A stretch of DNA of 64,000 nucleotides, taken from the NCBI RefSeq assembly GCF_058153355.1, contig NZ_CM177019.1; one strand, 5' to 3'. The position numbers are program-made. Positions 37,101 through 40,100 of this stretch are shown here, piece by piece (positions within the stretch are counted from its first letter, which is position 1; each line of letters opens with the position of its first letter).

Positions 37101-40100
37101 ATCCAGTGCACGAGCGACCAAAAACATGGTTCCGACAAATCCGGCAGGAATGCCAAAAATATCGGTATAAAAGAACATCATATATAATATTACGTTATCG
37201 AAAATAATGTGGCTGGCGGCGTCTCCCATGCCATAACCAATTTTCTCTTTAACGGACAACACTTCACTCTTCATCTGCTTTTCCTTGATGCTATAGGGGT
37301 GCTGAGACCGATAACGCATTTTGTAAACCATCCCTGTGAGAGCGAATATTCCGATATCTGGTTATTAATTTATGATTCTTGTTTTATGTGATCGTGGTAG
37401 CGTAAATTACGCTCATATATCATTGTAAAGTATGGGTTTTATATGAACTATAATGCTTTCGTGATAATACGCTGCATGTATTAGGCGGAAAAAACTGATC
37501 TGGGGGATGTAGAAACTCAAGGAAGTAGCTATAATGCGCCCCGCCTCCATGTAGCAATCGAGGCGCGGAAGATCGTCGTCTCCGGTGAGGCGGCTGGACT
37601 TCAAATCCAGTTGGGGCCGCCAGCGGTCCCGGGCAGGTTCGACTCCTGTGATCTTCCGCCAGTTTGCCTCTACTGACGTTCTCCAACCCCTTGTAATACA
37701 GTCAATCCAGATATTTTCTACTGCTCAATATTTAATCGGCTTCAGGAATACCTGATCAAAGGTTTTGTGATGGACGATGAGCGACTGAAGAATCCGCCTG
37801 TCGGTTCTTCTGTCCTCGAACGCATCCGCGATATTCGCGCCAGCATGCGCCGTGTTTATTTGCAGGTGATTTGCCCCCACTGCTGACTCTCAGCCAACTG
37901 TATCGCCATTAAGGTGAAGATGTTGTTTTACACGCCCCAAAACACCCTTTTTTCATACGACGATTCTATTCCTTTAACCGCTGGCGAAAAAAACTGACCT
38001 ATAAACTTCACCAATAATCAGACTGCCATCAAGATTAATTTTTTCATTTAATATATCAAATAAACTTGTTTTATTTTTACTATCAAAAATAGCTCATTGC
38101 CTTACTATAATTAATATATAAATTCGGTGATTAATTCTTAACATGCTTTTGCTAATAATCTCAATTGCTGGCCCTATAATATTGCGCTAGCATTGCTTTC
38201 TGGTTGTATCAGCGATACTCAAAAATTCTTAATATAATACTCATTCGACTGGTACTTATTTGTAACTCAGTTATATTTTGTCGCCCGGTGATTCAGAAGA
38301 ATGCAAAAAATGGCTACCACTCCATCAAAAATACTTGATCTCACTGCCGCGGCATTTTTACTTGTCGCCTTTCTGACTGGTATTGCGGGCGCTCTCCAGA
38401 CTCCCACCCTAAGTATATTCCTCGCAGATGAACTGAAAGCCCGTCCTATAATGGTAGGTTTTTTCTTCACCGGTAGCGCTATTATGGGAATTCTGGTCAG
38501 TCAATTTCTGGCAAGGCACTCCGATAAACAAGGCGACCGTAAATTACTGATCCTACTATGTTGCTTATTTGGAGTGTTGGCCTGCACTCTTTTTGCGTGG
38601 AATCGCAACTACTTCATTCTCCTCTCTACGGGCGTACTTCTGAGTAGTTTTGCTTCCACTGCAAACCCGCAAATGTTCGCCCTCGCCCGTGAACACGCCG
38701 ACAGAACAGGCCGTGAGACGGTCATGTTCAGTACATTTTTACGTGCTCAGATCTCGCTTGCCTGGGTTATCGGGCCACCGCTCGCTTATGAGCTGGCAAT
38801 GGGATTTAGTTTTAAAGTGATGTATCTCACCGCTGCCATCGCATTTGTTATTTGCGGGCTGATAGTCTGGTTGTTTTTGCCATCAATACAAAGAAATATT
38901 CCTGTCGTTACCCAACCCGTAGAAATTTTACCCTCCATCCATAGAAAGCGGGATACACGGCTACTTTTTGTAGTCTGTTCAATGATGTGGGCGGCGAATA
39001 ATCTCTACATGATAAATATGCCGCTATTTATTATTGATGAACTGCATCTAACCGATAAACTGGCTGGAGAAATGATTGGTATTGCTGCCGGTCTGGAAAT
39101 TCCGATGATGTTAATCGCAGGCTATTACATGAAACGTATTGGCAAGCGACTATTAATGCTCATTGCTATCGTGAGTGGTATGTGTTTTTACGCCAGCGTA
39201 CTCATGGCGACGACTCCGGCAGTTGAGCTGGAATTGCAAATTCTAAATGCCATTTTCCTTGGTATTCTCTGTGGTATCGGCATGCTTTATTTTCAGGATC
39301 TGATGCCTGAAAAAATAGGCTCTGCGACAACGTTATATGCAAATACCTCACGCGTCGGCTGGATTATCGCCGGCTCTGTTGACGGAATTATGGTTGAAAT
39401 CTGGAGCTACCACGCGTTGTTCTGGCTGGCGATAGGGATGTTGGGTATTGCGATGATTTGCCTGCTGTTTATTAAAGATATTTAGCTCACCAGTCTGAGC
39501 TAAGAAAAATCGGCGTGGCGCAAACAGAGCCATCCTCGCCATTTTTGCTATCATGCCTGCATACATAAACGACAAAACAGTATGCAGAGGGAAAAATGGG
39601 TTCCACCAGAAAGGGGATGCTGAACGTTCTGATTGCCGCCGTGTTGTGGGGAAGTTCAGGGGTCTGCGCGCAATACATCATGGAGCAAAGCCAGATGTCG
39701 TCGCAGTTTTTGACTATGACGCGTTTGATATTCGCCGGTTTGATTCTGCTGACGCTGTCATTTGTGCATGGCGATAAAATCTTTTCTATTATTAACAATC
39801 ACAAAGATGCCATTAGTCTGCTGATTTTTTCCGTGGTTGGCGCGCTAACCGTACAGCTCACTTTTTTGCTAACCATTGAAAAATCGAATGCTGCCACGGC
39901 AACGGTGCTGCAATTCCTCTCACCGACGATTATCGTCGCCTGGTTCTCACTGGTGCGTAAATCCCGCCCGGGCATTCTGGTTTTTTGCGCTATTTTGACA
40001 TCGCTGATCGGGACTTTTTTATTGGTGACACACGGTAATCCGACGTCATTATCGATCTCTCCTGCCGCGTTATTCTGGGGCATTGCCTCGGCATTTGCTG

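Follow-up and report, generated by a model that had tools for sequence, protein, structure and literature searches.

The stretch analysed here, referred to below as the window, comprises 64,000 nucleotides (64 kb) of contig NZ_CM177019.1 (RefSeq assembly GCF_058153355.1), read on one strand, and contains the selenocysteine tRNA gene selC at 37567-37661 on the plus strand. This gene (tRNA-Sec, anticodon TCA) was the only tRNA gene recognised in the window by ARAGORN, is identical to selC of K-12 and was the sole match in an Rfam scan of positions 37300-38500 (RF01852, 83.8 bits). Islands with P4-type integrases that are located at selC include the enterocyte effacement locus (LEE) of O157 and of enteropathogenic Escherichia coli, pathogenicity island I (PAI-I) of strain 536 and Shigella island 2 (SHI-2). 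In the window, selC is followed by 15 nt that complete an attachment core, by a relic of the leader of rhuM, a fragment of a rhuM pseudogene, an AT-rich spacer and setC. The selC site is free of an integrase-bearing island and is in the same state as in K-12. As judged by homology, the rhuM remnant behind selC nevertheless demonstrates that the site is not virgin backbone.

Around selC, the window and K-12 align base for base with 97-98% identity, and the two sequences are collinear from 33541 in yicI to 41841 at the end of yicS, with selC, the leader, the rhuM fragment, the AT-rich spacer, setC, yicL, nlpA and yicS in the same order. The window differs from K-12 at four positions within the first 15 nt past the tRNA (GTT...A instead of AAA...C) and by a 1-bp change near the end of the rhuM remnant, by which the frame stays open slightly longer in the window. 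The spacer 5' of setC (37887-38300, not assigned to a strand) has a GC content of 32.9%, and over 37990-38300 the GC content is 29.3% compared with 49.4% for the whole window. The spacer contained no RNA family detectable with Rfam, and promoter or terminator signals in it were at chance level. Both annotation and a match to Pfam MFS_1 (E = 7.6e-41) identify setC (38301-39485, plus strand) as the gene for a sugar efflux transporter of the major facilitator superfamily with 394 aa. Alignment, base composition and collinearity thus agree with the sequence-only reading of this locus, in which selC was said to be followed by a very AT-rich stretch and then by setC, as in K-12.

Integrases and repeats of the selC end were searched for across the 64 kb of the window. 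The integrase found at selC in O157 had no match in tblastn searches (best E 3.1), and a profile hidden Markov model (HMM) built from 27 selC-adjacent integrases of other Enterobacterales found no match in any of the six reading frames (best E about 1), indicating that there is no tyrosine integrase near the 3' end of the tRNA gene. A tblastn panel of IS66, IS5 and CP4-type genes (DUF4942, DUF957 and CbtA) from occupied genomes likewise detected no remnants in the window, with nothing under E = 0.07. The 3'-terminal 26-mer and 16-mer of selC, with up to three mismatches allowed, were found at selC only, apart from a single 16-mer match at 31301-31316 with three mismatches, for which the number expected by chance is 0.44. 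The best second ungapped match to the 24-nt selC repeat reached 16 of 24 positions window-wide and 13 of 24 positions near the borders of the eip island, a 17-kb accessory region that follows yicS. Within the 64 kb there is consequently neither a distal direct repeat of 21-24 bp of the tRNA 3' end, as would belong to a tRNA-integrated selC island, nor a partial one above chance level. With classical selC islands the window shares the attachment core, i.e. the last 24 nt of selC and approximately 15 nt beyond, but it has no integrase, no direct repeat and no cargo. From selC to the backbone there is no large insert and the order is that of K-12, yet the segment from 37677 to 39566, which starts at the edge of the attachment core, is variable. 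The earlier statement that neither integrase nor island is present at selC is therefore corroborated by the tblastn, HMM and repeat searches, whereas the word "unoccupied" holds only with respect to an integrase-bearing island and, given the rhuM relic, not in the sense of virgin backbone. In E. coli, selC is more frequently empty than in any other state, and in this respect our observation is ordinary and already known.

The remnant behind selC can be understood by comparison with strain E03, in which an intact gene for a RhuM protein of 345 aa lies directly after selC. When E03 RhuM was used as query against the window, tblastn returned a single match at 37740-37868 (E = 4e-18), which covers residues 121-171 with 41 of 51 residues identical and eight residues deleted. 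An HMM of 10 selC-linked RhuM proteins had its sole match in the window at the same place (E = 1.7e-19). The match to Pfam PF13310 (Virulence_RhuM; E = 1.7e-6) scored 28 bits and remained under the gathering score of 33.7 bits because the fragment is short. In matching E. coli genomes, K-12 and thousands more, the NCBI Prokaryotic Genome Annotation Pipeline (PGAP) labels this spot as an incomplete rhuM pseudogene. Together, tblastn, Pfam, HMM and PGAP identify 37739-37868 on the plus strand as a rhuM pseudogene fragment that comprises codons 121-171 of 345 with an internal deletion of eight codons. The 120 N-terminal and 174 C-terminal codons are gone and 43 codons survive, and hence a match to the family profile but no full-length coding sequence of about 345 aa is present. 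In the literature, we found no K-12 gene name for the rhuM fragment and no useful paper on the empty selC site. Inside and just past the fragment lies an open reading frame (ORF) of 38 codons (37770-37886, plus strand, alternative start at 37767), whose ATG corresponds to Met131 of RhuM. The sequence-only reading had listed this ORF with its correct end (...ICPHC), but had not recognised it as a decayed internal piece of rhuM.

Homology between the window and E03 stops at 37676, 15 nt past the tRNA, and returns at 39567, 29 nt before yicL. In the window and in K-12, the 1.9 kb between these points (37677-39566) contain the leader, the rhuM fragment, the AT-rich spacer and setC, whereas E03-type genomes, ST131 (sequence type 131) included, carry the intact rhuM gene and an ORF of 165 aa (hyp165) in their place and have no setC. 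According to these alignments, 37677-39566 including setC constitutes a replaceable cassette rather than strict backbone, in place of which other lineages carry intact rhuM with the 165-aa ORF, LEE or other islands. Among 5426 complete E. coli genomes, selC, the rhuM fragment and the start of setC were contiguous in 2467 (45%), the islet of rhuM fragment and AT-rich DNA was present anywhere in the genome in 3618 (67%), and the intact-rhuM cassette of the E03 type was found in 844 (16%). The difference between the first two numbers indicates that about 21% of the genomes keep the islet with an insertion between selC and the islet. In occupied genomes, the end of the island is marked by the 24-nt repeat TTCGACTCCTGTGATCTTCCGCCA, which is followed by the same leader and rhuM fragment as in the window. 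The backbone that is common to all variants extends from 39567 to 41843, as determined by annotation and by blastn against K-12 and E03, and contains yicL (39596-40519, plus strand), nlpA (40523-41341, minus strand) and yicS (41550-41843, plus strand).

The left edge of the cassette directly adjoins the attachment core (37638-37676, plus strand), which consists of the last 24 nt of selC and the 15 nt that follow (GTTTGCCTCTACTGA) and reads TTCGACTCCTGTGATCTTCCGCCAGTTTGCCTCTACTGA over its 39 bp. The 24 nt from selC form the direct repeat in occupied genomes, and the next 15 nt are common to the integrase-side arms of selC islands. The homology of both O157 and E03 to the window stops at 37676, and in O157:H7 the integrase comes next. 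The right attachment site (attR) of strain MMC-J-0085 begins with TTCGACTCC..., and the motif [AG]TTTGCCTCT[AC]CTGA stands after the CCA of loci with an integrase in Citrobacter, Pseudocitrobacter, Yersinia and Hafnia, and recurs in O157. These correspondences indicate that the recombination core reaches 37676, approximately 15 nt past the tRNA, which would account for the loss of homology at exactly this position in all E. coli variants.

A scan for the 24-nt selC end with one genome per species yielded 120 loci across Enterobacterales, some of them with short downstream DNA, and the downstream content was tallied for the 92 loci with at least 1.5 kb past selC. A full P4-type integrase followed selC in 26 of the 92 loci and integrase fragments only in four, whereas neither integrase nor rhuM was present in 44. 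In three loci (E. albertii, Morganella morganii and Yersinia pestis) an integrase, intact or in fragments, was followed by rhuM; in another 11, rhuM came first without any integrase, and in four it was located further away. The rhuM-first loci belong to Morganella, Providencia, Photorhabdus, Xenorhabdus, Enterobacter, Pseudescherichia, Kosakonia, Pantoea, Erwinia and one contig labelled Bacillota. The M. morganii locus has rhuM together with a further ORF placed between selC, which is accompanied by an integrase fragment, and a degenerate repeat of the attachment site at +3475, by which rhuM appears as cargo of a small, repeat-bounded islet of 3.5 kb. Behind an integrase fragment in E. albertii comes rhuM, without an attachment repeat in between. 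In none of the 120 loci of other species was setC found beside selC. In five short contigs from metagenome-assembled genomes (L015, L033, L061, L097 and L120), labelled as Bacillota, Clostridiales, Sphingobacterium, Wohlfahrtiimonas and Ignatzschineria, a selC 3' end of the enterobacterial type is accompanied by rhuM or by a P4-type integrase; mis-binning is probable for at least the Bacillota, Clostridiales and Sphingobacterium contigs.

In Salmonella, rhuM is a gene of Salmonella pathogenicity island 3 (SPI-3; PMC3680342), and yicL is located 278 nt upstream of the transcription start site of mgtC (PMC3641672). SPI-3, with the arrangement selC ... sugR, rhuM ... mgtCB and adjoining yicL, occupies the same chromosomal interval between selC and yicL, but the window keeps only 43 rhuM codons and no other SPI-3 gene. 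SPI-3 rhuM is likened here to E. coli rhuM as a putative orthologue; the loci compared include none of S. enterica subsp. enterica. In the locus of S. enterica subsp. arizonae (L101), no rhuM was found within 3.3 kb of selC.

Between the attachment core and the rhuM fragment, the 62 bp at 37677-37738 (plus strand) represent a relic of the rhuM leader. In a MAFFT alignment with the loci L084 (E. whittamii) and L043, K-12 and E03, this relic corresponds to the leader found in front of the rhuM start codon of E. whittamii and of the divergent E. coli strain SCPM-O-B-8794. The junction between the leader and rhuM codon 121 has a short microhomology (GCTTxA..GGA) of the kind that a spontaneous deletion would leave. 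We infer that the relic originated from an intact rhuM gene linked to selC, the integration step included. In the ancestor, an intact rhuM would have adjoined selC, most likely as the cargo of a small element that was integrated at selC and lost its integrase. A microhomology-mediated deletion may then have removed the last part of the leader together with rhuM codons 1-120, and further deletions the eight internal codons and the 3' half of rhuM, while the AT-rich setC segment would now fill the remaining interval. The selC site probably bears the scar of an old element, because rhuM is found beside selC in other Enterobacterales, sometimes behind integrase fragments. In E. whittamii, the rhuM start and about 14 codons are kept at +146 past selC (MSDKRLTQSPTGEF) before the frame is lost, and this different course of decay points to independent decay of rhuM across Escherichia lineages. 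A more far-reaching proposal is that no E. coli has a truly virgin selC site and that the K-12-type site is the fossil left end of an ancient small selC element (arm, lost integrase and rhuM), which would be related to the selC-proximal part of SPI-3 and would have decayed independently in Escherichia lineages, with setC captured in what was left of the interval. We put this forward tentatively, as a possibility with a little less than an even chance of being correct.

Several observations weigh against an integrated element as the source of the relic. Downstream of an intact selC integrase, none of 26 loci contained rhuM within the available DNA, which implies that rhuM is not a regular cargo of present-day selC islands, and rhuM could instead be an old resident neighbour of selC. 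Similarity of the leader beyond +15 to 15 island arms was marginal and significant for only a few of the arms. At the right edge of the cassette (39567) we found no remnant resembling attR, and hence an origin by site-specific integration can only be deduced. As regards the empty state of selC itself, the search for a second copy of the attachment site covered the 64-kb window, and a selC-derived repeat elsewhere in the genome is conceivable.

The accessory region downstream of yicS, 17.0 kb in length and 4 kb away from selC, occupies 41844-58842 and is flanked by the stop codons of yicS and nepI, which are convergent. Homology to K-12 is broken at 41841 and is back at 58843 with the nepI stop codon, while the yicS stop codon ends at 41843. 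On the plus strand, the region contains eicA for a class-II chaperone with tetratricopeptide repeats (TPR; 42145-42642, Pfam TPR_3), a small ORF (42652-42834), eipB for a SipB-like translocator (42890-44671, Pfam T3SSipB/SseC), eipC (44684-45805, no diagnostic Pfam match), eipD for a tip-complex protein (45849-47117, Pfam T3SS_TC) and eilA for a HilA-like regulator (47505-49202, Pfam Trans_reg_C and TPR). On the minus strand, eaeX, also named air or iatC, encodes an inverse autotransporter of 3128 aa (49254-58640, Pfam IAT_beta and Invasin_D3). PGAP gene names in related strains agree with these assignments. Both the gene set and the position downstream of setC, yicL and nlpA near selC correspond to the published and already known eip/eilA/eaeX locus selC-B, as which we identify the island by its gene content. 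The selC-B locus supplies translocators and a regulator for the type III secretion system ETT2 (E. coli type III secretion system 2), whose companion secretion apparatus at glyU is located outside the window.

The genome paper of enteroaggregative E. coli (EAEC) 042 describes the eip cluster as inserted next to selC (PMC2808357). According to Fox et al. (2020, PMC7058095, after Sheikh et al. 2006), selC-A in EAEC 042 is bounded by selC and by a 21-bp repeat of the 3' end of selC and is followed by setC, yicL and nlpA and then by selC-B, and most ST69 isolates contain selC-B without selC-A (PMC7058095). The window resembles the selC-A/selC-B region of EAEC 042 and ST69 (Sheikh et al. 2006; Ren et al. 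2004; Fox et al. 2020) in the presence of eicA, eipB, eipC, eipD, eilA and eaeX and in the separation of the island from selC by setC, yicL and nlpA, in addition to yicS. Like most ST69 isolates, the window lacks the phage-like selC-A, which explains why no selC repeat of 21-24 bp is found in the window. The island contains no integrase detectable by tblastn or with the 27-integrase HMM, its flanks share a single direct or inverted 10-mer, as expected by chance, and neither border has an att-like remnant. A minus-strand att-like score at 58640-58900 with p of about 0.02, uncorrected for eight tests, was rejected. The sequence-only reading was thus right that a large island without integrase follows yicS and that the island, as it stands, is not a classical tRNA-integrated element, as there is neither an integrase nor a selC repeat. 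An unexplained accessory island it is not, since it is the published selC-B locus, whose separation from selC has been described (PMC7058095).

In contrast to most eip islands of E. coli, the version in the window is divergent: it is only about 90% identical to most of approximately 700 E. coli carriers, while the core genes on its flanks share 94-98.6% identity with K-12 and E03. In the eipC/eipD region, especially over 44675-46496, the divergence is too high for megablast, the closest relative included. The divergence suggests that the window contains a distinct, old allele of the eip island. The immunoglobulin-like repeats of eaeX (50800-55200, minus strand) have a GC content of 58-64% compared with 34-42% in the other island genes, and the number of eaeX repeats varies between strains.

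It could be argued that the ORF of 38 codons encodes a genuine small protein, possibly from a piece of RhuM that was domesticated, since the frame in the window is open over 69 codons (37677-37883), a weak AAGG is located about 9 nt 5' of its ATG and the segment is kept in 3618 of the 5426 genomes. However, the ORF spans only codons 131-171 of a 345-codon protein, from which eight codons are deleted. The K-12 copy of the ORF has lost 1 bp close to its 3' end (...GCCCCC-CTGC), by which the frame is shifted, and PGAP reports an internal stop for the K-12 rhuM remnant. Substitutions relative to K-12 include non-synonymous ones and occur at the neutral-looking rate of nearby non-coding DNA, and no promoter signal above chance level was detected for the ORF. 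We consider a functional gene at this place extremely improbable; the ORF is best described as an accidental frame, a by-product of rhuM decay and not a gene, and a function is not expected. The 15 nt after the tRNA raise a different question, as they differ at four of 15 positions from K-12 (37662-37676, GTTTGCCTCTACTGA compared with AAATGCCTCTCCTGA) despite flanks with 97-98% identity. This cluster of differences would fit a site that was occupied in the recent past of the lineage and was vacated by integrase-mediated excision, leaving island-derived bases behind. In support of such an event, GTTTGCCTCT is the version found in the left attachment site (attL) of O157, and TTTGCCTCTACTGA is identical to the arm of islands that carry an integrase in Pseudocitrobacter, Citrobacter and Hafnia. 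On the other hand, AAA, ATT, GTT and AAG are all seen at these positions in many genomes and species, whether occupied or not, the cluster may represent a mutational or recombinational hot spot, and no further footprint of excision was found. Recent excision is unlikely in our view.

A third explanation would join the two parts of the region and have the eip island enter within one large selC-integrated element from which it was later separated, so that 37677-58842 would constitute a single old island. The literature names the eip island a selC locus (PMC7058095, PMC2808357), setC and the rhuM relic are variable, and the eip-eilA part has an atypical composition with 37% GC. However, K-12 and E03-type genomes, which lack the eip island, contain yicL, nlpA and yicS in collinear arrangement, the boundaries of the island lie exactly at the stop codons of two convergent backbone genes, and no att-like sequence is present at either border. 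A common origin of the whole segment thus appears very improbable. The explanation that we prefer, i.e. an empty K-12-like selC site, a rhuM remnant within a variable cassette, formation of the relic by decay and a known eip island further downstream, is as a whole highly probable.

Two further insertions were noticed outside the region between selC and nepI. Between yicH and yicI, a 7.3-kb insert (26288-33540) that is absent from K-12 and present in strain E03 contains genes for a BglG-type antiterminator, the IIA, IIB and IIC components of a fructose-type phosphotransferase system, two aldolases, a ROK kinase and a D-lyxose/D-mannose isomerase. The nepI-yicN interval (60122-60963) contains a RelE/ParE toxin gene (60255-60614) and a helix-turn-helix/MqsA-like antitoxin gene (60598-60921), which are absent from K-12 and present in E03 and in strain 24A16CRGN010. 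The latter strain was the closest one with a 1-kb query (100% match), but it is overall only about 98% identical and has a different iatC. It carries a gene of the reverse-transcriptase family between pyrE and slmA (8617-9576 of its locus L008), which is missing in the window, where slmA (8549-9187) adjoins pyrE (9224-9880).

The findings are of little consequence in themselves, as no other state of selC is as common as the empty one, reference genomes already have the rhuM remnant annotated and the eip/eilA/eaeX island is published. Their value lies mainly in annotation: the ORF of 38 codons ought not to be listed as a gene, and ETT2-associated selC-B locus is the appropriate label for the 17-kb island. 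Likewise, "unoccupied" should be taken to mean that no integrase-bearing island is present and not that the site is ancestral backbone. An attachment core that extends about 15 nt past the tRNA and the recurrent presence of rhuM at selC in Enterobacterales bear, as a small point, on the decay of tRNA-linked islets.

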